Shown piece by piece: positions 1,860-30,758 of a stretch of DNA of 32,000 bases. Source of the stretch: Serratia marcescens (GTDB taxonomy: Bacteria > Pseudomonadota > Gammaproteobacteria > Enterobacterales > Enterobacteriaceae). Position numbers and translations under genes: made by a program. How positions within the stretch are numbered: the first letter of the stretch is position 1; every line of letters starts with the position of its first letter. The DNA lies in assembly GCA_015548865.1 (NCBI GenBank), contig JADMXW010000031.1, forward strand, positions 1-32,000, in the 5' to 3' direction. The notes under the pieces were generated by a model, which saw only the letters and a list, made by a program, of their open reading frames with translations, was not told the origin of the DNA and searched no databases.

Positions 1860-2108
1860 ATGCGCATGGCATACGTTAGAAGGAAGGGTGGAGTCTATTA
1901 TGAAATGCCTGCCGCAGCGGTTAGCAACGGCAAGGGATTTGTGATTTATTGCTTAATTAGCCGCGATATGTACACAACAACGCCAATGATTTTTGCACTT
2001 TCGCTTACTGGGATTGGTGGTATCCCTTGCGCTGCTGGGACAAGAAAGCCTAAACCTTCGCCAGGAACAAACCGGTATATTGAGGCTGATCCGTGCACTT
2101 CTGCATAG
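1860..2108 (+). CDS. Candidate 82-aa ORF downstream of the LexA-box promoter, antisense to the last 163 nt of cI (speculative antirepressor)
   Basis: ATG at 1860 with GAGG 8 nt upstream. It is the in-frame 3' part of track ORF 1701..2108. It could equally be a shadow ORF of cI. Confidence 0.25.
   Translation: MRMAYVRRKGGVYYEMPAAAVSNGKGFVIYCLISRDMYTTTPMIFALSLTGIGGIPCAAGTRKPKPSPGTNRYIEADPCTSA
1900..1944 (+). CDS. Candidate 14-codon micro-ORF (MKCLPQRLATARDL) downstream of the LexA-box promoter
   Basis: ATG at 1900 with GGAG 6 nt upstream. The TGA at 1942-1944 ends 2 nt before the cI stop codon on the opposite strand. Confidence 0.25.
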   Translation: MKCLPQRLATARDL

Positions 2109-2557
2109 ACATAATCATTGTTTTCTGGCCGCTCAATCGTGTTGACAACAATGATTGATCCACTGGTGGCGTCCGGAAACCCAGTGTCTCTATTCAGCCT
2201 GTATGCTTTGCATCGCCTTGGGTTTATCCCTTTGGGAGCGGCAACAAAGTCTTTTAGTTGCTTATCACCATCCCACAGGGAGACGAACACCACGCCATCA
2301 ACCACCGGTGACTGGGCCTCGCCATCAAACTCAGAGGTAGAATCACTTTTCATCGGGCCAATGTTCATATCTAACCATTCCGGCCTAACCCCAAGGGCCA
2401 CTGCGATTTCAACTATGTGTCCTGACTTTTGAGTCTTGCCAGAAAGGATTTTGAAAATGCTGGGCTGAGCGATGCCTGCGGCTTCTGCAAGCTGAGCTTG
2501 ATTAAAGCCTCTCATATCCATCGCTAATTTCAGTCGTTCTGCAAGTGTCGTTTTCAT
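1946..2557 (-). CDS. cI: CI-type prophage repressor: N-terminal XRE helix-turn-helix and C-terminal S24/LexA-like domain, apparently lacking the autocleavage residues
   Basis: HTH segment FNQAQLAEAAGIAQPSIFKILSGK. The C-terminal half aligns by eye to lambda CI (KAYRL..FPDATSGSIIVV..IGVVV). It is divergent from cro across three operators. Start chosen at ATG 2557 (alternative 2569; the track start at 2593 is a TTG), because the predicted PRM would give a leaderless mRNA. Confidence 0.85.
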   Translation of the reverse strand: MKTTLAERLKLAMDMRGFNQAQLAEAAGIAQPSIFKILSGKTQKSGHIVEIAVALGVRPEWLDMNIGPMKSDSTSEFDGEAQSPVVDGVVFVSLWDGDKQLKDFVAAPKGINPRRCKAYRLNRDTGFPDATSGSIIVVNTIERPENNDYVYAEVHGSASIYRFVPGEGLGFLVPAAQGIPPIPVSESAKIIGVVVYISRLIKQ

Positions 2558-2564
2558 AGCCGTG

Positions 2565-2593
2565 AACATATAGCCGTGGTTATCTAGCGTCAA
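2565..2593 (-). promoter_or_regulatory. PRM-like maintenance promoter for cI
   Basis: On the - strand: TTGACG (2593..2588), 17-nt spacer, TATGTT (2570..2565). The predicted +1 falls at or near the A of ATG 2557, giving a leaderless mRNA as for lambda cI. The -35 abuts the middle operator. Confidence 0.5.
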
Positions 2594-9837: not shown

Positions 9838-9944
9838 AACTCCTTACCTATATTTTCTCACTCTTCACCCCAATAACCCCTCAAGTACAGCCAACCAGCT
9901 ATCAGAACTGGGATGCAGATCCAAAACGGAGGAAAGCTAAGTGA
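9834..9944 (+). CDS. Possible 36-aa peptide
   Basis: ATGA overlap with the upstream gene and GTGA overlap with the Q start. There is no other support. Confidence 0.3.
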   Translation: MKLLTYIFSLFTPITPQVQPTSYQNWDADPKRRKAK

Positions 9945-10762
9945 ATTTAGAGTCGATACCGAAATACTTCTCACCGAAATCACCGAAACTTTCCGACGAA
10001 TCCCCAGCAACAGCAAGTGACAGCTTAGGCATTAGTGATGTGATGGCCGCCATTGGTATGACACACCAGTCTGGCGGTATCGGGTTAGATTTATTTCTGG
10101 CTAAGATTGGCGTCAGCAGCCCAGATAAAGCGATAGAGGGATTGATAGGCATTGCACGAAGTCTGGCAGGACGATGCAAGCCTATCTCTGAACTCGATGA
10201 AGATAGTAAATCGGAACTACTGCAAGTGCTCGCAACGTTTGCGTATCAGGACTACGCGCGGAGTGCTGCCAGCGTCAAGCCGTGCCCGGATTGCACGGAC
10301 GGGTTTATTGATGCGGAGGTATTCACCACAAAATCACACATGCCATTTCACGCACAGGAAATAATCACCATGTCTAAACGGATGGACGTGGAGATAATCC
10401 CAAAAGAGTTTGAGATTGAGCGGCGGGTTAGAGAGGTTGTCAGGGTGCAATGCCCGACATGCGGCGGAAAGGCGGTCGTCAGCAATTCATGTCGCTGCAA
10501 AGGGAGAGGTAAAGTTCTGGACGAAGAAGCGACGAAAGCGAATGGAGGCTTGCCGATCCACAAAGAATGCCCGAAATGCAAAGGGAATGGATACCGCAAA
10601 ATGCCATCTGAGAACGTCAGGCGGGCCGTGTGTTTGCAGGTGATGGAAGTATCACAGCCTAGTTGGTCGCGCCACTACAAGCCTCTTTATGAGGCTATTG
10701 TGGGGGAATGCTTCAAGGAGGAATCAAAGGCATCTGCCGCGCTACATAAAATTACACGATAG
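9941..10762 (+). CDS. Q: Late-gene antiterminator Q (lambda Q type) with an enlarged Cys-rich insertion
   Basis: LESIPKYFSPKSPKLSDESPATASDSL...LQVLATFAYQDY...ECPKCKGNGYRKMP...SQPSWSRHYKPLYEAIVGECFKEES parallels lambda Q (LESVAKFHSPKSPMMSDSPRATASDSL...KVLQVLATFAYADY...). The start is GTG with GGAGG 9 nt upstream. Confidence 0.9.
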   Translation: MNLESIPKYFSPKSPKLSDESPATASDSLGISDVMAAIGMTHQSGGIGLDLFLAKIGVSSPDKAIEGLIGIARSLAGRCKPISELDEDSKSELLQVLATFAYQDYARSAASVKPCPDCTDGFIDAEVFTTKSHMPFHAQEIITMSKRMDVEIIPKEFEIERRVREVVRVQCPTCGGKAVVSNSCRCKGRGKVLDEEATKANGGLPIHKECPKCKGNGYRKMPSENVRRAVCLQVMEVSQPSWSRHYKPLYEAIVGECFKEESKASAALHKITR

Positions 10763-10844: not shown

Positions 10845-11058
10845 GGGTTAATTGCCTGTTGTTCGTGGTTGAGAAGTAGGCCCAGCGAACCATAACCTAA
10901 GTGGGCCTAGTTGGTAGGAAGTACCGAAGTATGGTATGAGTCAACTCCAACCATGCAGGCTGAGAGGTCTGTCATATCGATGTACTGTTAAGCGAGCAGC
11001 GAATCGTTAGCGGGGATGGTCCCGCCAAACCGCCTGAAAGGGGCGGTGCCAATTCAAG

Positions 11059-11082
11059 CCACTGCTAACGCGGTGGATTTTT
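11059..11082 (+). terminator. tR'-like Rho-independent terminator ending the roughly 240-nt PR' leader
   Basis: CCACUGC-UAAC-GCGGUGG (7 bp including one G-U) followed by AUUUUUCAUUU. Confidence 0.7.
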
Positions 11083-11089
11083 CATTTCA

Positions 11090-11164
11090 GGGTCAGAAGC
11101 ACAGCGGTTGTGCGTTCGGCTGTTAACCGAATGGTCGAAGGTTCGAATCCTTCCTGTCCCGCCA
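11090..11164 (+). tRNA. tRNA-Asn (anticodon GUU), 75 nt with encoded CCA
   Basis: A manual cloverleaf fold works. Acceptor GGGTCAG/CTGTCCC has one T-T mismatch at 4:68. D stem is GCAC/GTGC. Anticodon stem TTCGG/CCGAA has loop CT-GTT-AA. T arm is GAAGG-TTCGAAT-CCTTC, and the 3' end is G-CCA. Confidence 0.8.
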
Positions 11165-11170
11165 CATTTC

Positions 11171-12580: not shown

Positions 12581-12633
12581 ACGTCGCGCCAACGTCCTGG
12601 TTGCGTTCACTAATTGGCGATAGTGAGGCGACT

Positions 12634-13221
12634 ATGTTCAATGTTGCATATCTTAAATCACTCGAAATCAGAAAGCCCCTTACCGTAAGGTTGATGAAAC
12701 GAGTTGAGGTGGATGAAGATTCAGGATGCTGGGTGTTCATGGGCAGTAAAGACCGTTGTGGTTACGGAAGAATGAAGGTTGGGCCTCACAGCTTGGGCGC
12801 TCACAAGGTCGCGTATTTAATGCTGGTCGGAGATTACGACCAATCAAGACTTGAATTAATGCATACCTGTGACAATCCAGCATGCATAAATCCTGATCAC
12901 CTTATCCCCGCCACCCACAAAGAAAATATCGATGACTGCATAAATAAAGGAAGACACACAAGCCAAATATACAAGGCACATCTTGGCAGGAAGAGAAAGA
13001 AAGTTATCGATAATAACCATAATGAAAAAATGAATGGGTCTGGTTTAATCGCCTTTTTCTCATCAAGAAAACTTGCTATCGCATTAGGTGAGAAAACCTA
13101 CAGCGGTTCAGTCTGCGAGAAGCATCAAATGACGATAAGAAAGACAAACAACGGTGCTTGCATTTATTGCATGGAAGAATACCGGATTAACAAAACAGCA
13201 TCTCGCAGAGCTCAATGCTAA
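12634..13221 (+). CDS. HNH endonuclease (HNH_3 type) with a C-terminal Cys-rich segment
   Basis: ATG at 12634 with GTGAGG upstream (the track start at 12601 is a TTG). Signature CGYGRMKV...GAHKVAYLM...HTCDNPACINPDHLIPATHKENIDD. Confidence 0.85.
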   Translation: MFNVAYLKSLEIRKPLTVRLMKRVEVDEDSGCWVFMGSKDRCGYGRMKVGPHSLGAHKVAYLMLVGDYDQSRLELMHTCDNPACINPDHLIPATHKENIDDCINKGRHTSQIYKAHLGRKRKKVIDNNHNEKMNGSGLIAFFSSRKLAIALGEKTYSGSVCEKHQMTIRKTNNGACIYCMEEYRINKTASRRAQC

Positions 13222-23433: not shown

Positions 23434-23822
23434 CCCTTACAGAAATTCGTAATGCTGTCATCACCAGAATGACGGCGCAGACTGCTATTGCCGCAAGCGC
23501 AGTAAGTTATCCCAACGGGGCCACATTCGACCCAACCGGGAAAGCCATCTGGGCGAGATTAACCAACATACCCGGTCAGGCTGGTGCAAATGAAATCGGC
23601 GCTGGCCCGGTGGTTCACCGCACTGGAATTGTCATTATTCAGCTATTCGTCCCTGCTGGTTCAGGCTCGAAGCTGATCACCCAAACCGCCGACCAAATCC
23701 GCGCGCTATTCGAGTTTCAAGACGATGGCGCATTGAGCTATTTCTCCGTCTCTGCGTATGACTCTGGCGAAGCTGACGGTTGGGCGCAAATGAATTTAAA
23801 CATCCCTTACCGGGCGCTGTAA
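23430..23822 (+). CDS. Tail terminator protein (gpU-like / DUF4128-like, by position)
   Basis: 130 aa. It is the last gene before the major tail protein, apart from the inserted HNH gene. Confidence 0.6.
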   Translation: MTLTEIRNAVITRMTAQTAIAASAVSYPNGATFDPTGKAIWARLTNIPGQAGANEIGAGPVVHRTGIVIIQLFVPAGSGSKLITQTADQIRALFEFQDDGALSYFSVSAYDSGEADGWAQMNLNIPYRAL

Positions 23823-24428
23823 CCTTAAATCAAGTCGTTTAAATCTCGTTGGATATTTAGCACAGTACGGTGGCTTTAAATCACCAACCTTTACATGAAG
23901 CCATAGTTTTCCTCCGTTTATGCCTGATATTACCCGATCGCTAATCCCGTATATCTTGCTAATGCTGATATGGGTTTCACCGGAAGTTAAGCGATGGATT
24001 ATGTCAATAACATCCGACTCGGTTAGCTTCGATGTTGTGACTTTGCTACCCCTGCGAGGGTTTGCTCTACCCATAGACATCATATGAGCGGAATTACCAG
24101 CAGTAGTGGTCCATTCTAGGTTTAAAAAGTGATTATTTGAGCGGTCACAATCGATATGGTTAACAACGTCACAACCATCTTGTTTTTCACAAAATGCCTC
24201 AGCAACCATGCGATGAATTTGCCTGTGGTGAGACTTCCTTCCCCCAGTCCTGAAAGAGACGCTTAGGTATCCATCCTTACTGGAGTAAGGGGAAATTATT
24301 TTTCCGGGGAAAAACCTATCCCATCCCTGCGGATAGCTGACGTATCTATCAATAGAGCGGAAAATTCCTGTGTTTGATATCTCATAAGATCCTTCAAAAC
24401 CGGCAACAGGTTTCCAAATTTCTTTCAT
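23796..24428 (-). CDS. Free-standing homing-type HNH endonuclease (NUMOD4 + HNH_3 + C-terminal HTH)
   Basis: WKPVAGFEGSYEISNTGIFRS (NUMOD4). HRMVAEAFC...VNHIDCDRSNNHFLNLEWTTTAGN (HNH). TSKLTESDVIDIIHRLTSGETHISISKIYGIS (HTH). GGAG RBS. It is inserted on the opposite strand within the tail operon. Confidence 0.85.
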   Translation of the reverse strand: MKEIWKPVAGFEGSYEISNTGIFRSIDRYVSYPQGWDRFFPGKIISPYSSKDGYLSVSFRTGGRKSHHRQIHRMVAEAFCEKQDGCDVVNHIDCDRSNNHFLNLEWTTTAGNSAHMMSMGRANPRRGSKVTTSKLTESDVIDIIHRLTSGETHISISKIYGISDRVISGINGGKLWLHVKVGDLKPPYCAKYPTRFKRLDLRLQRPVRDV

Positions 24429-24570: not shown

Positions 24571-25743
24571 TTGAGTAGCGGAGCCAAAGTAACAAGCGCA
24601 TTCGTGCGTGAAATAACAGCTGGAGTTACGCCAATAGGTGCAACTTGGAATTTGCTAAAGCGAACTAGTTGGGGGGTGGGGCCGACACAAAACACATCGG
24701 AAAATGATGAAATAGGTGGAACAAGGATGAGTCAGGGCTCGTCTCGTGGGACAGTCGATGTTGGCGGCGACGTGGCTACCAAGTTCCGCTATGGGCAGCA
24801 TGATGAATTCCTTGCATCCTGTTTCGGATCAGAATGGGCGTCAAACGTTCTGACGATGGGCAACGACCGTATCGCTTTCTCGCTGGCAACCTATGCCTCT
24901 GATATCGGCGTGGCGTCCATTGTTCGCGGCGCTCAGGTAAGTGTGTTTCAGCTTGAAGTGCCCAATGACGGAGATGTAACCGCAACCGTGACATTCGCTG
25001 GTCTTGATTGGGATTCTAAGGCTGACGACACAAGCTACATCAACGGTACGCCAGCAGATAACGCAGGTGATTTGCGCTACTCCTTCAAAGAAGTGACTGC
25101 GATCAGCCTGAATGGCATTGATGGTGGTAGCGGATTCTGTATCGACACGTTCAATATCCAGTTTGATAACAACGTGCAGACACAACGCTGTATCGGGACC
25201 GGATCGCCTTATGCCGGGGCGAACATTCCGACAACCTTCACCCCGTCAGGTTCTATCACACTGTCATGGTCAAAGGCTGCATGGGAGGTGTGGAGCAAGA
25301 CACTCACCGGCGCAACGGTGCCGTTTAGTTTCACGCTGGCGAACGATGAAGGCTCTTATGCTTTCAACTTCCCGAAAGTGCAGGTATCCGGCGATTGGCC
25401 CGATGGTGGCAATACCGACATCATCCAGGTGCAATTGGATATTACCGCTTCCGATGAGTCGCCCACCATCACTCGTCAAACAACCGTCCCGGCTACCGCT
25501 ATCAGCGTGCTGCCCGCGACTTCTTCCGGCGCTGTAGCCTCAACGGTCGGCCTTACCGCTACGCTGACGCCTTCAGGTGCAACAGATGTGGTTGAATGGA
25601 CGTCATCTAACCCAGCAGTCGCAACCGTAGCCTCTACTGGTCAGAAAACAGCGCAGGTAACACGAGTAGCCGAAGGCACAGCAACTATTACCGCCAAGGT
25701 TCGCACTTACACGGCGACATCGGCAATCACTGTAACGGCTTAA
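24571..25743 (+). CDS. Major tail protein with a C-terminal Ig-like (Big_2) domain
   Basis: TTG start with GGAGG 6 nt upstream. 390 aa. The C-terminal VEWTSSNPAVATVASTGQKTAQVTRVAEGTATITAKV is a Big_2 signature. Position is before the tail chaperones. Confidence 0.85.
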   Translation: MSSGAKVTSAFVREITAGVTPIGATWNLLKRTSWGVGPTQNTSENDEIGGTRMSQGSSRGTVDVGGDVATKFRYGQHDEFLASCFGSEWASNVLTMGNDRIAFSLATYASDIGVASIVRGAQVSVFQLEVPNDGDVTATVTFAGLDWDSKADDTSYINGTPADNAGDLRYSFKEVTAISLNGIDGGSGFCIDTFNIQFDNNVQTQRCIGTGSPYAGANIPTTFTPSGSITLSWSKAAWEVWSKTLTGATVPFSFTLANDEGSYAFNFPKVQVSGDWPDGGNTDIIQVQLDITASDESPTITRQTTVPATAISVLPATSSGAVASTVGLTATLTPSGATDVVEWTSSNPAVATVASTGQKTAQVTRVAEGTATITAKVRTYTATSAITVTA

Positions 25744-25806: not shown

Positions 25807-26256
25807 ATGATTATCATCACCCCACGAATTGACGTTGACGGCGAGCGCTGGATTGAGCCTCTTGAAGGACTGCGTCTGAAAGTCACCAGCAGTGAGAATC
25901 ACCAGTTCCGCTCACGCAATGCCGTTGTACGCCGCCATATTGAAAAGCTGGATGCTCATTTCAAGGTAGGCACAACCGAGTTTAACCCCGCAGACGTTGG
26001 TGATATTGACTCCATTGACGACCTGCTGATTGATACCGCCGCTCGCTTTCTTCTTCGTGATTGGGAAGGGGTAGGCGAGATGGTAGATGGTAAGGAGCAG
26101 GCTATTGAATACACCACAGAGCGTGGTGCTGTGCTGCTGAAACAACACCCTGAATTGTACTGGCATGTGCTGTCTGCTGCTGCTGATATCGCCAACGGCA
26201 AAGCGGAGCAGGTAAAAGCGACGGTGGGAAAGTCCTCGAAGCGCAAAAGTGGCTAA
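25807..26256 (+). CDS. Tail assembly chaperone G
   Basis: 149 aa, located between the major tail gene and the tape measure. It contains the slippery heptamer near its 3' end. Confidence 0.8.
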   Translation: MIIITPRIDVDGERWIEPLEGLRLKVTSSENHQFRSRNAVVRRHIEKLDAHFKVGTTEFNPADVGDIDSIDDLLIDTAARFLLRDWEGVGEMVDGKEQAIEYTTERGAVLLKQHPELYWHVLSAAADIANGKAEQVKATVGKSSKRKSG

Positions 26257-26570
26257 ACGAGTTCGGCGGCGAGACGGGCGAGAAGGCCAAATGGCGGCGT
26301 GAAAAGCTAGGCTTGCCGCCAATTCCTGAGCCGGAGATAGACGAGGTGACAGGAGAAATCCTCAGCGCCTACGCCGTTATATCCCGCTCCCGGCAGTATG
26401 TCGGCATGGCTGGTGCTCCGCTGCCGATATCGCTTGCTGACGTGGATCGCTATCTTTCCTCTCGCTCTATCCTCATTGATCGCACAGAACTGGACGCTGC
26501 TGTATTCGCCCTTGATGACGCATGGCGCGATGAGTGGGCAAAAGAGCAGGATAAGCGCAACAAGAAATGA
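25807..26570 (+). CDS. Tail assembly chaperone GT, the -1 programmed frameshift fusion product (about 254 aa)
   Basis: The -1 frame is open from 26187 to 26570. Slipping at G GGA AAG (26226-26232) joins ...KATVGK to VLEAQKWLNEFGG... Track ORF 26313..26570 has only a TTG start and no RBS, which fits expression by frameshift only. Confidence 0.75.
26226..26232 (+). promoter_or_regulatory. -1 programmed ribosomal frameshift slippery heptamer G GGA AAG
   Basis: It fits the X XXY YYZ pattern in the zero frame of G and is identical to the lambda G/GT slippery sequence. Confidence 0.75.
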
Positions 26571-26576
26571 CTTGCA

Positions 26577-26604
26577 TTGCTTTGCGCTCACTCAGTGATA
26601 GGAT
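26577..26604 (+). promoter_or_regulatory. Candidate sigma70 promoter of the lipoprotein cassette
   Basis: TTGCTT (26577-26582), 16-nt spacer, TAGGAT (26599-26604). An alternative -35 is TTGCAT at 26572-26577. Confidence 0.4.
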
Positions 26605-26633
26605 GTGACGAAATGTTACTCAGGGGGCGAAGC

Positions 26634-27005
26634 ATGAAGAAAGTGATAATTGCTGGCATGGTTGCGTTTATGCTGGCTGGGTGTGTCTACTCAAACCATT
26701 TTGAAACCGGAGCGCCGGTTGCTGTAGAAAACGTTAATAAAATAGTTAAAGGAAAAACAACCGAGGCTGAACTTATAAGCTTGTTCGGGCAGCCATTATC
26801 AAAAGCAGTAGTGAGCGCCACTGAGTCGAAGTGGATTTACTCGCATACATCATCAACAGCGTCCGCGCAGGCTTTCACGATGAAAACCACATCGAGCGCA
26901 GAGATAACCACGCTTGACATTCTCATAAAAGATGGTGTGGTGATTAATTATGCGTTCACCAAAGCGCCGCTTAACCCGAGCGTTAAATTCAACTCGTCGC
27001 TGTAA
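26634..27005 (+). CDS. Outer-membrane lipoprotein, BamE/SmpA-OmlA-like (123 aa)
   Basis: ATG at 26634 with AGGGGG upstream. Signal peptide MKKVIIAGMVAFMLAGC contains a lipobox. KIVKGKTTEAELISLFGQPLSK...WIY resembles the SmpA_OmlA fold signature. Confidence 0.75.
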   Translation: MKKVIIAGMVAFMLAGCVYSNHFETGAPVAVENVNKIVKGKTTEAELISLFGQPLSKAVVSATESKWIYSHTSSTASAQAFTMKTTSSAEITTLDILIKDGVVINYAFTKAPLNPSVKFNSSL

Positions 27006-27011
27006 GGATTA

Positions 27012-27551
27012 ATGATGACGAAATTATCACTTATTGGCCTGCTTGGTGCGGCTTTATTGCTTGGTGGTTGCGCTAACGATGTGGGCGTAAATCCAGTAAC
27101 GGCAACAAGCGATTTCGACGGGGCTAAAACAGTAACTATCATGCCTCACGGTGCTGAATGCTGTATTGCTGTTGGCGCATTCTGGACAGACAAAGCACCT
27201 GATGTGGCAGTCTTGGAATTTAAAATATTCGGCGCTTATACCAATATCGAAAGCGTCGAATTGAACATTGACGGGAAATTTATCAGGTTGGATGCCGCTC
27301 AGCGGTTTACTAACTTTTCCAACAATGGCGGCATGGTCGTGGCGCCTGGAGTCCCGATTGTTCGAGAGTCAACCATGGGATTTTCCACATCACTTGACGT
27401 AGTGAAATCTATTACTGCATCGCAAAAAACAGTGGTGAGGCTAACAACCCTGAATGACGGCGCAGTTGTAGCGAAGATCAAGGATGGCGCAACGGACAGT
27501 AAGGCCTATTACGCACTTCAAAGGTTCCTGGCTGCCATACCGAGAAAATAA
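27012..27551 (+). CDS. Lipoprotein of unknown function (179 aa)
   Basis: AAGGA RBS. Signal peptide MMTKLSLIGLLGAALLLGGC contains a lipobox. Confidence 0.75.
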   Translation: MMTKLSLIGLLGAALLLGGCANDVGVNPVTATSDFDGAKTVTIMPHGAECCIAVGAFWTDKAPDVAVLEFKIFGAYTNIESVELNIDGKFIRLDAAQRFTNFSNNGGMVVAPGVPIVRESTMGFSTSLDVVKSITASQKTVVRLTTLNDGAVVAKIKDGATDSKAYYALQRFLAAIPRK

Positions 27552-27570
27552 ACACATCAGATTTATCGAA

Positions 27571-27595
27571 GCCTCGCAAACGCGGGGTTTTTTTA
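27571..27595 (+). terminator. Strong Rho-independent terminator directly upstream of the tape measure gene
   Basis: CCUCGC-AAAC-GCGGGG followed by a 7-nt U run. Confidence 0.75.
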
Positions 27596-27612
27596 CGCCC
27601 GGAGAAAGGTAA

Positions 27613-30504
27613 ATGGCAGAACAAACATCACGCCTTGCGATCATCATCGATAGCACCGGGGCGGAAAAGAACGCCGATAATCTGGCAACTGCGCTGGGGA
27701 AAATGACGCAGGCGGGGCAAAACGCCGCATCTGGGGCGAAGAAAGTAAAAAAAGCCACTGAAGAAGAGTCTGAAGCGTTATCTAGCCTCCTTGACCGAAT
27801 TGATCCGGTTAACGCTGCACTAAACAAACTAGATGCCCAGCAAAAAGAACTGGCAAAATTCAAATCCAAGGGGTTTATCGACACTGACACCTTTGATGCC
27901 TATTCGAAGAAAATAGAGGATTCCCGAGGAAGATTATCAGGGTTTTCTGATCAACTATCCAAAACAGGCATGTCAGCGAAACAAACCGCCGCCGCTATGC
28001 GCATGGTTCCCGCGCAAATGACGGACATCATTGTCAGCCTCCAAGGGGGGCAAGCACCGCTTACTGTCTTGTTGCAGCAAGGTGGGCAGCTTAAAGATAT
28101 GTTCGGCGGTATTGTCCCGGCAGCAAAAGCGCTTGGTGGTTACGTAGCTGGTTTAATCAATCCATTCACATTAGCGGCTGCCGCCGCTGGAGTTCTTGGC
28201 CTTGCATATTATAAGGGAAGCCAAGAGCAGAGCGCTTTTAACGAATCACTTATCCTTACGGGGAATCTGGTAGGAAAAACATCCGGGCAACTGGCGCTGA
28301 TGGCAAGTAATGTAGCGTCGGCAACAAAAACTACCACTGGCAACGCGTCCTCAGTGCTGAATCAGTTGGTTTCGACTAGTAAGGTTGCCGGAGACTCGCT
28401 GCAAATAGCGGCATCGGCAATTGTTAATATCAACAAAGAAACCGGAATTGCCACTGATCAGCTTGTTACTGACTTTGGCAAATTGGCAAAGGACCCCGTT
28501 GCCGCTATTGCAGAACTTAACGAGAAATACAACTTTCTAACGGTAGCAACATATAGCCAGATTAAAGCTCTCCAAGAGGAAGGTAACACACAGGAGGCGG
28601 CTCGTATTGCTACCGAGATATATGCAAACACTCTAAATACAAGGGCGGCGCAGATACACACTAGCCTTGGTACTCTTGAAACTGCATGGAACGCGATCAC
28701 TGGAGCAGCAAAAGGCGCATGGGACGCAATGCTTGATGTTGGTCGCCAAAAAACGCCAGAACAGAGCCTGAAAGAGCTAAGTGATAGAATCGCTGAGGCG
28801 CAAAAAGCGCAATCAGAAGGTGGGATTTGGAACAGCTTTAATTCAAAATTCATCAACCTAGATGCAATGATTAAGGCACGTGATGAACTTCAATCACAGA
28901 TTACTACCAATAGCACGCTGAATGGCATCATTGACGAGCGAAACAAAAAAGAGCAGGCGCTGCTAAAGACCCAGCAGGAAGCGGACAAGGTTAATCAGCA
29001 GTACATTTCGAATGCCGAGCGGAGAAATAAAGCCATTGCACAACAACAGAAGTTTTTGGATGCTGGTGCAATTAGCGCTGAACAGTATGCAAAAAACGTT
29101 GAACGCATTAACGAAATGTATAAGGACGCAAAAACGCCAAAGTATTCAGAAGACGCTGCAACGCGCTTGCTGGATCAAATTTCTAAACAGAACGCATCTT
29201 TATCCTTACAGTTAGAAACCACCGATAAGATCACCAGTGCGACACAGCAGCGCATCAAGTTCGAGCAACAGATAGCAGACCTGAAATCAAAATCTCAACT
29301 CACAGCTGACCAGAAATCAATCCTGGCGCGTTCTGATGAAATTTTGCAGGCATACAAGGCGCAAGAGGCGCTATCCGACCAAGTTAAGACGCTTGATGAT
29401 TATCGTAAAATGCAAGATGACATCAGGAGCAAAGACCAGAAAACAAATGACCTTCTACGCGATCGGCTTGAGCTTTTGGAAAAAGCAAAAGCGACTGGTG
29501 CCCTACAGCCTGGTGAATACGACCAGACTAGGGCTGGGATTCTAAAAAATACACAGGCCACTTTGCCCAAGAGCGTTACCACTGCAACAGGCGGCATTTC
29601 TTCGGGTAAAAATGGAGGGACGGCAAGCACATGGAGCGGAGTTGGGCAGCAGTTTAACCAAAACCAGCAAGCCAGTTCTGAATTGGAAGCGTGGTACCAG
29701 CAACAATTAACGTTTTATCAGCAGTATTACGAAAGTCGGAAGAATCTCACTGCTGAGTATGAGGCGCAGATCACCCAACTGCAGAACACCTACGGACAGC
29801 AGAGGGTGATGCTTGACCAACAGCGCAGCCAACTGATCCAGACATCAACGCAATCAATCATGGATAGCGTAGTGTCAATCACAAGGGATGGTTTCGGTGA
29901 GCAGTCAGCTATCTACAAGGTTGCATTTGCCGCCAACAAAGCATTTGCGATCGCTCAATCAATCATCTCCATTCAGCAGGGTATCGCGCAGGCCGCGGCA
30001 AACCCATTCCCTTACAATTTGGCTGCAATGGCATCCGTCGCGGCAGCAACGGCAAGCATTGTATCGAATATCTCTGCTGTGGCTGGGGTTGGGTTCAAAA
30101 CCGGTGGATATACAGGTAATGCTGGGGTTAATACGGTTGTCGGATCTGTTCACGGTAAGGAATACGTGTTCGATGCCGCTGCAACAAAACGGATTGGCGT
30201 ATCCAACCTTGAGGCATTGCGTAACGGCGGATCACTGGATGCCACGCTGTCACGTCCGGGGTATGGGACTGGTGCTACAAGCGTGTCGAATAGCAATGCA
30301 AACACTACCGTATTCAGCCCAAACGTTAATGTAAGTAATTCGTTCAGTGGAAAGCCTGATGACGCCACGCTTATCGCTATTAATCAGAGCAATAAGCGGC
30401 TGGCTAAGCAGATCAAGGACGAACTGACGGCAGAAATAATCACGCCACAGGGGCGCTTTGGTAACGCCCTAAAAGGTAGTTACAGAAGGCAGGGGCCAAA
30501 GTGA
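27613..30504 (+). CDS. Tail tape measure protein
   Basis: 963 aa with long helical Ala/Gln/Lys-rich regions and hydrophobic Gly/Ala-rich segments. Position is after G/GT. GGAGAAAGG RBS. Confidence 0.9.
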   Translation: MAEQTSRLAIIIDSTGAEKNADNLATALGKMTQAGQNAASGAKKVKKATEEESEALSSLLDRIDPVNAALNKLDAQQKELAKFKSKGFIDTDTFDAYSKKIEDSRGRLSGFSDQLSKTGMSAKQTAAAMRMVPAQMTDIIVSLQGGQAPLTVLLQQGGQLKDMFGGIVPAAKALGGYVAGLINPFTLAAAAAGVLGLAYYKGSQEQSAFNESLILTGNLVGKTSGQLALMASNVASATKTTTGNASSVLNQLVSTSKVAGDSLQIAASAIVNINKETGIATDQLVTDFGKLAKDPVAAIAELNEKYNFLTVATYSQIKALQEEGNTQEAARIATEIYANTLNTRAAQIHTSLGTLETAWNAITGAAKGAWDAMLDVGRQKTPEQSLKELSDRIAEAQKAQSEGGIWNSFNSKFINLDAMIKARDELQSQITTNSTLNGIIDERNKKEQALLKTQQEADKVNQQYISNAERRNKAIAQQQKFLDAGAISAEQYAKNVERINEMYKDAKTPKYSEDAATRLLDQISKQNASLSLQLETTDKITSATQQRIKFEQQIADLKSKSQLTADQKSILARSDEILQAYKAQEALSDQVKTLDDYRKMQDDIRSKDQKTNDLLRDRLELLEKAKATGALQPGEYDQTRAGILKNTQATLPKSVTTATGGISSGKNGGTASTWSGVGQQFNQNQQASSELEAWYQQQLTFYQQYYESRKNLTAEYEAQITQLQNTYGQQRVMLDQQRSQLIQTSTQSIMDSVVSITRDGFGEQSAIYKVAFAANKAFAIAQSIISIQQGIAQAAANPFPYNLAAMASVAAATASIVSNISAVAGVGFKTGGYTGNAGVNTVVGSVHGKEYVFDAAATKRIGVSNLEALRNGGSLDATLSRPGYGTGATSVSNSNANTTVFSPNVNVSNSFSGKPDDATLIAINQSNKRLAKQIKDELTAEIITPQGRFGNALKGSYRRQGPK

Positions 30505-30530: not shown

Positions 30531-30758
30531 CTATTCTTCTTTTAAATCATTTTCAAGCTGAACAACAGCTCGTTTAAGGAAGTCTAGTGCTCTGCGTTTT
30601 ATCTCAAGATTCAGCTCGGAACGTGAATCAATAAATCTATCCACCCATATTTCCAAATCTGCCATGTTCATACCCTTATCTTCGCCAAGATCATCTGTAA
30701 TTTGGAGCCAATATCCATTCTCTGAGCTGTTTGCGTCATGCTTAGTTCTGAAATTCAT
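30531..30758 (-). CDS. Hypothetical 75-aa acidic protein, reverse-oriented within the tail operon
   Basis: ATG at 30758 with GGAGG upstream. It is a complete ORF on the opposite strand, between the tape measure and the minor tail genes. Confidence 0.6.
   Translation of the reverse strand: MNFRTKHDANSSENGYWLQITDDLGEDKGMNMADLEIWVDRFIDSRSELNLEIKRRALDFLKRAVVQLENDLKEE

Follow-up and report, generated by a model that had tools for sequence, protein, structure and literature searches.

Two independent prophage lipoprotein genes stacked in a conserved accessory-gene slot at the junction of the tail chaperone and tape measure genes: candidate factors of superinfection exclusion

Several small phage lipoproteins of the outer membrane, such as Cor (phi80/N15/T1/mEp167), Llp of T5 and Lpp of the mEpimmI coliphages, exclude phages that use a given receptor. 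In lambda, the lipoprotein Bor is involved in serum resistance. The term "moron" was first applied to HK97 gene 15 (Juhala et al. 2000; Cumby et al. 2012; reviewed in PMC3594210). This gene, equipped with a promoter and a terminator of its own, separates the tail assembly chaperone gene from the tape measure gene; its product, gp15, is expressed from the prophage and excludes phage by blocking genome entry (PMC3594210). In the mEpimmI coliphages, lipoprotein exclusion genes have been found within the structural cluster (PMC11893012). [quoted passage not shown]

Here we consider a 32,000-nt stretch of Serratia marcescens DNA (the window), which we regard as lambdoid because it encodes a CI-like repressor, O, a DnaC-like protein, NinB, RusA and a lysozyme. 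An earlier reading of the window, made without database searches (the sequence-only reading), described two lipoprotein genes (here LP1 and LP2), with a promoter and a terminator, inserted between the GT chaperone and tape measure genes. The GT chaperone, LP1, LP2, the promoter hexamers and the terminator were all recovered in the same places, and the features relevant to this work are the following.

9941-10762, plus strand: Q-type late antiterminator gene (Pfam PF03589 Antiterm, E 5e-42)
25807-26256, plus strand: G tail assembly chaperone gene (phrog_313)
25807-26570, plus strand: GT fusion, 254 aa, with the -1 frame open to the stop at 26570 (T part, phrog_1189)
26577-26604, plus strand: putative slot promoter (-35 TTGCTT, 16-nt spacer, extended -10 TGaTAGGAT)
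26605-26633, plus strand: 5' leader, a diverged copy of "leader A", with the Shine-Dalgarno sequence AGGGGG at 26622-26627
26634-27005, plus strand: LP1, 123-aa lipoprotein gene (phrog_3135, E 3.6e-31)
27012-27551, plus strand: LP2, 179-aa lipoprotein gene (phrog_7678, E 1.3e-28)
27568-27594, plus strand: intrinsic terminator (hairpin core 27572-27587, U7 tract 27588-27594)
27595-30504, plus strand: conserved TMP 5' flank (ACGCCCGGAGAAAGGTAA) and tape measure gene, ATG at 27613

The genomic site is identical to that of HK97 gene 15, and the two loci also share the architecture of a promoter (putative in the window) and a terminator within a late operon, with predicted envelope proteins as cargo in the window and an envelope protein in HK97. 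However, gp15 is no lipoprotein but a small YebO-like protein of the inner membrane, unrelated to LP1 and LP2 in sequence and fold; moreover, the window stacks two genes, and its promoter and terminator are conserved edges common to many cargos. LP1 and LP2 resemble Cor, Llp and the mEpimmI Lpp in being small phage lipoproteins, predicted for the outer membrane and located among tail genes, as those often are, but they are larger (106 and 159 mature residues, respectively). Pfam, NCBIfam and PHROG annotation gave no sequence or family match of LP1 or LP2 to Cor or Llp, nor to any other named exclusion family, and neither protein was matched by the PADLOC defence models. The 50 best PDB fold matches of either model included no Llp or Cor chain, the presence of Llp in the library being unconfirmed. 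Lom and Bor of lambda are likewise outer-membrane products of accessory genes in or beside the late genes, and an Ail/Lom homologue fills the same GT/TMP slot in some relatives; Lom is nevertheless a beta-barrel and Bor an unrelated lipoprotein, and neither matches LP1 or LP2. Ltp is comparable as a moron-type prophage lipoprotein whose target is the tape measure protein of the incoming phage, but it belongs to a Gram-positive host, is surface exposed, has an unrelated fold of helix-turn-helix repeats and is encoded in the lysogeny module. P-FimU differs in mimicking a minor pilin of the type IV pilus and in lying between the tube and chaperone genes, whereas mimicry of BamE by LP1, discussed below, is hypothetical.

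The tail genes flanking the pair have the expected features. The slippery heptamer G GGA AAG (26226-26232), in frame with G, is the same as that of lambda, and the tape measure product matches Pfam TMP_2 (E 1.3e-75) and TMP_4 (E 6.9e-25). The gene for the receptor-binding protein falls beyond the end of the window. The GC content of the cassette (0.45 to 0.48) shows only a modest drop relative to G/GT (0.52 to 0.58) and is close to that of the early part of the TMP gene (0.46 to 0.50). The whole-window DNA search returned patchy identity of 75 to 79% to Klebsiella, Yersinia and other phages, and no match was obtained when the cassette was compared by megablast with the phage and E. coli collections.

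The sequence-only reading had proposed a sigma70-like promoter. The hexamers TTGCTT and TAGGAT and their 16-nt spacer are present, and a TG at 26596-97 makes the -10 element extended; the putative promoter agrees with the consensus at only 7 of 12 positions, which leaves it under the threshold of the consensus scan, and support for the proposal comes from this TG and from the conservation of the -10 element and leader before unrelated cargo genes. In particular, TA.GAT is invariant across the aligned upstream regions of six cargos, and the extended -10 recurs in five other loci (L028, L044, L069, L003 and L020), while the copy in L006 has a 21-nt spacer and no TG. The leader that follows, for which no significant structure was predicted in the window (z-score 0.0), is a variant of the motif ..AAATGTTA.T.A.GGGG.. 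(leader A), which a motif search also located before LP2 in L101, LP1 in L006, the gene for a 319-aa protein in L007 and genes for Zn-ribbon membrane proteins (L033 and others). Copies of this promoter and leader are present at accessory sites elsewhere as well: one adjoins cI in Salmonella phage S107, and another belongs to a P22-like prophage of Citrobacter.

At the opposite end, a terminator had been placed 18 nt before the TMP ATG, and a hairpin with a U7 tract is found at that distance. Its stem CCTCGC/GCGGGG (27572-27587) is followed by seven T at 27588-27594; the terminator folds as a 10-bp hairpin of -15.6 kcal/mol, and it is absent from the list produced by the consensus scanner. Rfam returned sub-threshold matches only over the region, driven by the terminator. 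In each of the 11 relatives that were aligned, among them L030 with its empty site, the TMP gene is preceded by a homologous hairpin, T-run and GCCCGGAGA, and 89% of the cells of the alignment pair, compared with 59% or less when the partner is slid. Furthermore, a hairpin and T-run follow every LP1 or LP2 cassette end examined, with the exception of L017, L004 and L023.

A comparison of 79 related loci, in which the distance between the T stop and the TMP start was measured, gave the survey of presence and absence at this junction that had been proposed for the window. The distance ranges from 39 to 3356 nt; it is 39 nt in L030, 163 to 165 nt in 27 loci and 1042 nt in the window, which bears out a moron-type insertion between GT and TMP, the extra DNA being absent or replaced in relatives. 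Cargo occupies the junction in 51 of the 79 and consists predominantly of envelope proteins: lipoproteins of at least eight unrelated families, together with an Ail/Lom porin and Zn-ribbon membrane proteins, besides an IS. The comparison shows the junction to be a moron hotspot in this lambdoid phage lineage, with a conserved slot from which accessory genes would be expressed. Two points of the sequence-only reading have to be revised accordingly. The cassette is not self-contained, since the promoter/leader and the terminator are slot boundaries common to unrelated cargo and the terminator persists where the site is empty; moreover, the layout is hardly unexplored, HK97 gene 15 having made this the archetypal site for morons.

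LP1 and LP2 are real genes, with homologous families, conserved lipobox cysteines and AlphaFold models for both products. The N terminus of LP1 (MKKVIIAGMVAFMLAGC|VYS) contains the lipobox LAGC with Val at +2, and its Cys17 is invariant in the 23 sequences compared among 43 homologues found; a single Klebsiella homologue was detected on 107 contigs. LP2 has the lipobox LLGGC|AND with Ala at +2, and Cys20 is kept in at least 90% of 61 sequences. Both are thus predicted lipoproteins lacking Asp at +2 and, as the sequence-only reading had noted, their +2 residues predict sorting to the outer membrane, by the established +2 rule.

A second ATG of LP2, at 27015, is the start used by a database copy, which gives a product of 178 aa. 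A word-indexed search with LP2 alone returned only itself, and its relatives, found in Acinetobacter, Citrobacter and plasmids, were obtained by an exhaustive search (145 cluster representatives); a scan of genome contigs gave no match. Conserved motifs of the family are PHG..C, GA.W, LNIDG and DSKAYHALKRF, and LP2 carries the vicinal pair Cys50-Cys51. Domain-family searches recovered no known domain, in line with the sequence-only reading, and the structure prediction that it had proposed gave a confident beta-sandwich with a C-terminal helix (mean pLDDT, 92.8). Comparison of this model with the PDB and with viral models, together with a search of PDB sequences, returned weak matches only and nothing informative; the best PDB matches, considered for an IalB-like fold (Bartonella invasion-associated protein B, 3dtd), have a TM score of only 0.36 to 0.46 and an rmsd of 6 to 7 A, and LP2 has no sequence-profile match to IalB.

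On the basis of these comparisons, we lean towards a reading in which the slot houses two acquired lipoprotein genes, expressed in the lysogen, whose products would contribute separately to superinfection exclusion. By analogy with the characterized systems, LP1 and LP2 are most likely outer-membrane lipoproteins that the lysogen expresses and that exclude superinfecting phage. Points against this reading are that neither protein matched a PADLOC model or a named exclusion family, that the putative promoter agrees poorly with the consensus and that the drop in GC content of the cassette is modest.

The wider distribution of the two families speaks for their independence and also bears on a different function. 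LP2 relatives occupy the GT/TMP junction in about five lineages and are also located in an early region, in a P22-like conversion region beside an O-antigen acyltransferase gene and the immI region, and on a Rep3 plasmid, adjoining an Adhesin_E gene and near restriction-modification and Abi genes. LP1 relatives are found at the GT/TMP junction in about six lineages, as well as 3' of the TMP gene, adjoining repressor genes (Salmonella phage S107 and a Pseudoalteromonas prophage) and at island edges in Shewanella. It is possible, though we rate it as unlikely, that LP1 and LP2 are lysogenic-conversion factors acting for the host as Bor, Lom or Ail do; they would then alter adhesion, tolerance of envelope stress or resistance to serum or to plant defences, and would not exclude phage. 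The plasmid, P22-like and Shewanella contexts are in agreement with such a role, as is the occupation of the slot by an Ail/Lom barrel (Pfam E 2e-26) in L067, L070 and L073; in addition, the prophage most closely related to the window comes from the plant pathogen Pectobacterium odoriferum. Indeed, the cargo of the slot need not be anti-phage, given the Ail/Lom barrel and the LP2 relative beside an adhesin gene. Against conversion, domain and family searches detected no similarity of LP1 or LP2 to the Bor, Iss, TraT or adhesin families, and both the only tested cargo of this junction (HK97 gp15) and the tested lipoproteins of a tail cluster (mEpimmI Lpp) exclude phage. Host conversion and phage exclusion are not mutually exclusive.

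The similarity of LP1 to BamE/SmpA-OmlA, proposed in the sequence-only reading, is supported by fold matches and by the family as a whole, LP1 itself remaining under the Pfam threshold. LP1 is a lipoprotein of similar size, its AlphaFold model (mean pLDDT, 81) contains the alpha-alpha-beta-beta-beta fold of BamE, and every one of the nine top-ranked Foldseek matches to PDB structures is a BamE chain taken from a BAM complex (probability 1.00; E 4e-3 to 1e-2; TM score of 0.56 to 0.69 normalised to BamE). LP1 scores 13.7 bits against Pfam BamE (PF04355; E 0.057), below the gathering cut-off of 23.2, while 18 of the 23 family members touch this profile at E <= 0.1, the best at 3.4e-6; in the profile alignment, LP1 residues 5-73 fall on BamE 14-79 with the common core G.T..E....G.P. 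Different from BamE, LP1 is prophage-borne and sporadic and has an invariant motif of its own, SASAQAFTMKTTS, a family-specific strand motif that is the most conserved segment of LP1 and corresponds to an amphipathic strand region where model confidence falls to 72-77. One could hypothesize that LP1 is a phage-made mimic of BamE that docks on BAM (BamA or BamD) through this strand and alters the assembly or exposure of outer-membrane proteins, phage receptors or RcsF among them, so that exclusion or envelope remodelling would be indirect. The BamE matches and shared core are compatible with this idea, the dip in confidence would suit partner-dependent folding, and P-FimU offers the precedent of a tail-cluster prophage protein that mimics a subunit of a host envelope machine (PMC12952977). 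However, the similarity is weak (about 20% identity, with a Foldseek E of about 5e-3 in addition to the sub-threshold Pfam score), and a small fold of the alpha-alpha-beta-beta-beta type is generic in lipoproteins of the periplasm; we judge such mimicry to be improbable. If true, it would provide the prophage with broad, receptor-independent exclusion, and the GT/TMP slot would serve lambdoid phages as a general plug-in site for trying out lipoproteins that target the envelope.

The sequence-only reading had also suggested a two-component system, and this is not supported, given that LP1 and LP2 occur together only in the window: LP2 is present in none of the 17 other LP1 loci and LP1 in none of the 7 other LP2 loci. 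Elsewhere, LP1 is alone (L004, L018) or has non-lipoprotein partners (L006, L007), these being Rha or a 319-aa HExxH protein, and LP2 is alone (L101, L002, L022) or behind a different lipoprotein, of 118 or 108 aa; the genes upstream of LP2 are mutually unrelated. Between L006 and the window, homology is lost right at the stop codon of LP1 and picks up again in the T-run, at the edges of the cassette. That the two form an obligate outer-membrane system acting as a unit is hence very doubtful, even if they are separated by 6 nt, probably share a transcript and may be coupled in translation, and even if lipoprotein pairs recur in L028 and L020 with LP2 second (behind the 108-aa lipoprotein in L020) and, with yet another pair, in L086. 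LP1 and LP2 are two independent add-on genes and not a new two-part system.

Equally hard to sustain is a late-only function with no role in the lysogen, as a lysis accessory, spanin-like factor or tail assembly aid: such a role would suit the orientation that both genes share with the late operon, their expected transcription by Q-modified polymerase and the position of LP1 directly before TMP in several lineages, but LP1 relatives adjoin repressor genes, LP2 relatives reside in a podovirus-type prophage and on a plasmid with no TMP involved, many close relatives with similar tails lack both genes, and the window has its own lysis region at about 11.4-12.5 kb, separate from the cassette. A role as spanins was rejected in view of this lysis region and because LP1 and LP2 have no C-terminal membrane segment or proline-rich sequence, and a role as virion components because they are exported lipoproteins, missing from close relatives and present in non-tail contexts.

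The reading that we favor is thus one of two independently acquired exclusion lipoproteins in a conserved slot. As the sequence and the comparison show, the left edge of the slot is the putative extended -10 promoter with its short leader and the right edge is the intrinsic terminator, fixed about 18 to 20 nt before the TMP ribosome-binding site, the cargo ORFs between these edges being swapped by recombination. In the window, the two genes are stacked head to tail, with an LP1 similar to the copy in the Pectobacterium odoriferum prophage; the addition of LP2 was a precise one, from the LP1 stop codon up to the terminator, and the terminator type that follows LP2 in other phages came along with it. 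In the lysogen, we infer that the slot promoter transcribes LP1 and LP2 while the terminator shields the tail genes from this transcription. During lytic growth, Q-modified polymerase would read through from the late promoter, so that LP1 and LP2 would be made late too; such passage of the terminator, already presumed in the sequence-only reading, is plausible because a lambda-type Q antiterminator gene lies about 17 kb upstream of the cassette in the same transcriptional direction. LP1 and LP2 would act separately, each on an envelope target, and the likely effects would be a block of the adsorption or DNA entry of superinfecting phage and the sparing of progeny from adsorption to lysed cells.

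Since the site is that of HK97 gene 15, the layout is a textbook one and therefore does not represent a new kind of system. Its value is rather that of a resource: a well-delimited slot with fixed expression signals, in which at least eight uncharacterised lipoprotein families are gathered, LP1 and LP2 being both widespread and uncharacterised. The BamE-like fold of LP1 supplies a concrete, testable hypothesis on its target. If LP1 and LP2 are exclusion factors, they would represent new envelope-level mechanisms shaping the host range of phages in Klebsiella, Pectobacterium, Pseudomonas and Acinetobacter, and would be relevant to phage therapy.

According to the gene annotation, the window holds the genome of a lambdoid temperate phage, in which the early genes are followed by a head and tail operon lying on the plus strand throughout:

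1946-2593, minus strand: CI-like repressor
Also present in the window: Cro/CII-like region; replication protein O and DnaC-like loader; NinB, Dam and RusA; lysozyme
9941-10762: Q-type antiterminator (PF03589, E 5e-42)
24571-25743, plus strand: tube protein (Phage_tube_2 and Big_2)
25807-26256, plus strand: tail chaperone G (phrog_313)
To the stop at 26570, plus strand: T reading frame (phrog_1189)
26634-27551, plus strand: two small ORFs, the lipoprotein genes LP1 and LP2
27613-30504, plus strand: tape measure protein, TMP (TMP_2, E 1.3e-75)

The link between G and T is the slippery heptamer known from lambda (G GGA AAG, 26226-26232), which lies in frame and yields a 254-aa GT fusion. Two HNH homing-endonuclease genes also occur (12601-13221, plus strand; 23796-24428, minus strand), the latter, with NUMOD4 and HNH_3 domains and a match to the PADLOC HEase model (E 9e-25), being a reverse-orientation insert that separates the tail terminator gene from the tube gene. 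At ~11052-11169, between Q and the lysis genes, the window is 91 to 96% identical to Klebsiella and Enterobacter phage sequence annotated as tRNA-Asn in some of those records.

The promoter hexamers, both lipoprotein genes and the terminator described in the sequence-only reading were all found where it placed them. LP1 (123 aa) starts with MKKVIIAGMVAFMLAGC-VYS downstream of AGGGGG, and LP2 (179 aa) starts with MMTKLSLIGLLGAALLLGGC-AND, 6 nt beyond the LP1 stop, which is overlapped by an AAGGA. The terminator stem (CCTCGC/GCGGGG, 27572-27587), for which folding gives a 10-bp hairpin at -15.6 kcal/mol, is followed by seven U and then by 18 nt to the TMP ATG. Since the hexamers agree with the consensus at only 7 of 12 positions, they were absent from the output of a consensus promoter scan, which returned fewer promoter-like sites in the window than in shuffled sequence and is uninformative here. 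The putative promoter is supported by a TG one base 5' of TAGGAT, forming an extended -10, and by conservation of the left edge across relatives.

That reading took these elements for a self-contained cassette and proposed a survey of its presence in relatives. With the TMP N terminus as a query, 80 related viral contigs were fetched (L-numbers below denote fetched loci in general); in the 79 with both ends located, T stop and TMP start lay between 39 nt (L030) and 3356 nt apart, with ORFs inside the junction in 51. The cargo was varied and comprised LP1, LP2 and six other lipoprotein families, an Ail/Lom barrel, zinc-ribbon inner-membrane proteins, an IS transposase and several cytoplasmic proteins. 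Lipoproteins account for roughly one third of the cargo families; they form only a few percent of the enterobacterial proteome. The right edge consists, in order, of a GC hairpin, a T-run, GCCCGGAGA, a ribosome-binding site and the TMP ATG, and it is kept whatever the cargo, and also at the site that has none; the terminator stems vary in sequence and keep their pairing (in 89% of cells; with slid partners, no more than 59%). Upstream, leader A (TGcTAACCT-GTGTGCAAATGTTAATGATGGGGAT) stands in front of a 319-aa gene, of zinc-ribbon proteins or of LP2, depending on the phage; the window LP1 leader is a diverged copy of it. Leader B (TGaTA(G/A)GAT-GTTTCCGATTGCAATCAAAGGAAAC) heads three lipoprotein genes that are unrelated to one another and occupy three kinds of site. 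The sharing of both edges by unrelated cargo, with the right edge kept even at an empty site, argues against self-containment: on this comparative evidence, the terminator and the putative promoter belong to a slot with exchangeable contents, as its expression signals, and are not private to LP1-LP2.

In the emptiest junctions (L030 3962-4000, L071 3838-4000), the terminator still lies directly 5' of the TMP ribosome-binding site; such a cargo-less late-operon terminator could be a relic, or could insulate the tail genes in the lysogen. Leader B, found outside the window (L028 2984, L044 3064, L069 3523, L003 3972, L020 5633), occurs at the GT/TMP junction, beside cI in Salmonella phage S107 and in a P22-like Citrobacter prophage, and its 5' UTR carries a 5'-proximal hairpin (-9.5 kcal/mol, z -2.2). 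Together, promoter and 5' UTR resemble a transferable unit for the expression of lipoprotein morons, that is, accessory genes added to phage genomes. A 75-aa ORF (30531-30758, minus strand, low GC of 0.40) separates the TMP gene (stop at 30504) from the following tail gene (30817). With no match in a family search and with terminator-like hairpins on both strands around it, this ORF looks like a second accessory insertion. The same junction, TMP/minor-tail, holds a [318-aa + LP1] cassette in L014 and L016.

The proposal of a two-component lipoprotein system did not survive when profiles of the two families were run against all fetched loci: LP1 relatives occurred in 17 other loci, none with LP2, and LP2 relatives in 7 others, none with LP1 (an eighth match, the fragment L005, encodes an LP2 identical to that of the window and was left out). 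LP1 lies downstream of a Rha gene in a Pectobacterium prophage and of a 319-aa HExxH protein in Klebsiella prophages, is the sole cargo 5' of the TMP gene in a Pseudomonas phage and a metagenomic phage, lies 3' of the TMP gene in another lineage, and adjoins the repressor in S107 and a Pseudoalteromonas prophage. LP2 is the sole cargo 5' of the TMP gene in L101, Acinetobacter phage phi5013-M1 and L022, follows an unrelated 118-aa lipoprotein in L028 and another, of 108 aa, in the P22-like Citrobacter prophage (neighbours: an O-antigen acyltransferase and the Arc/Ant region), and is also found in a phage early region and on a Rep3 plasmid, with type I restriction and Abi-like genes nearby. Homology between the window and its Pectobacterium relative stops exactly at the LP1 stop and restarts in the terminator T-run, and the stem 3' of LP2 is of the type found 3' of LP2 in L028 and L101, which argues that the window cassette is two modules stacked by recombination. 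The 318-319-aa HExxH protein (L007 5027-5986; equivalents in L008-L016 and L107), without a match in Pfam and PADLOC searches, recurs 5' of LP1, as its partner, in prophages of Klebsiella and Citrobacter, and the pair is mobile as a unit between the GT/TMP and TMP/minor-tail junctions.

LP1 belongs to phrog_3135, with 43 homologues in Pectobacterium (96% identity), Klebsiella (~65%; one cluster is present on 107 contigs), Pragia and Shewanella, and more relatives in Citrobacter, Colwellia, Pseudoalteromonas and others; the lipobox Cys and the segment SASAQAFTMKTTS are invariant. The window LP1 scores below threshold against Pfam BamE (13.7 bits, cut-off 23.2). However, 18 of 23 relatives match (best E 3.4e-6), the family profile aligns with BamE chains across the G.T..E....G.P core, and the nine best PDB matches of the AlphaFold model (pLDDT 81) are all BamE chains (probability 1.00, TM 0.56-0.69 on target, ~20% identity). 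The BamE-like signature initially noticed is thus borne out, and profile and model together indicate a divergent BamE-fold lipoprotein rather than a BamE orthologue.

LP2 falls in phrog_7678, for which an exhaustive search gave 145 cluster representatives, and it has conserved motifs and a Cys pair. As anticipated from the sequence, a Pfam search with LP2 found no domain, and PADLOC and NCBIfam searches gave no family match for LP1 or LP2. The structure prediction suggested for LP2 yielded a confident AlphaFold beta-sandwich (pLDDT 92.8), weakly resembling Bartonella IalB (TM 0.36-0.46), with nothing named among its matches to viral models. The Cys pair is vicinal in the window copy (Cys50-Cys51, 27159-27164) and in its closest relatives, L028 and L101, most members having C-x(3-7)-C at this site; in a periplasmic protein, such adjacency points to a vicinal disulfide or to a disulfide loop of reduced length.

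The slot architecture, the independence of LP1 and LP2, their lipoprotein signals and the upstream Q antiterminator are established features, to which the LP1 model adds a BamE-like fold. By analogy with lambda, the slot promoter would drive LP1 and LP2 in the lysogen, the terminator shielding the tail genes from this transcription; after induction, both would also be made late because Q-modified polymerase would ignore the terminator and pass it. Cor and Llp are receptor-blocking lipoproteins. Precedent for exclusion comes from HK97 gp15, encoded at the very same GT/TMP site (PMC3594210), from the lipoprotein exclusion genes within the structural cluster of mEpimmI coliphages (PMC11893012), and from the lipoprotein Ltp, whose target is given as TMP in a reference cited in PMC3952083; LP1 and LP2 would likewise exclude phage. 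The main alternative is a benefit to the host, as with Bor or Lom, and is compatible with exclusion. It is possible, on thin support, that LP1 acts as a BamE mimic.

The layout was presumed to be unusual and unexplored, but the GT/TMP site is the founding example of a moron site and already known, and an occupied junction is the majority state in this lineage. LP1 and LP2 represent two widespread, uncharacterised families, and candidates for envelope-acting phage proteins are neatly catalogued in the slot.
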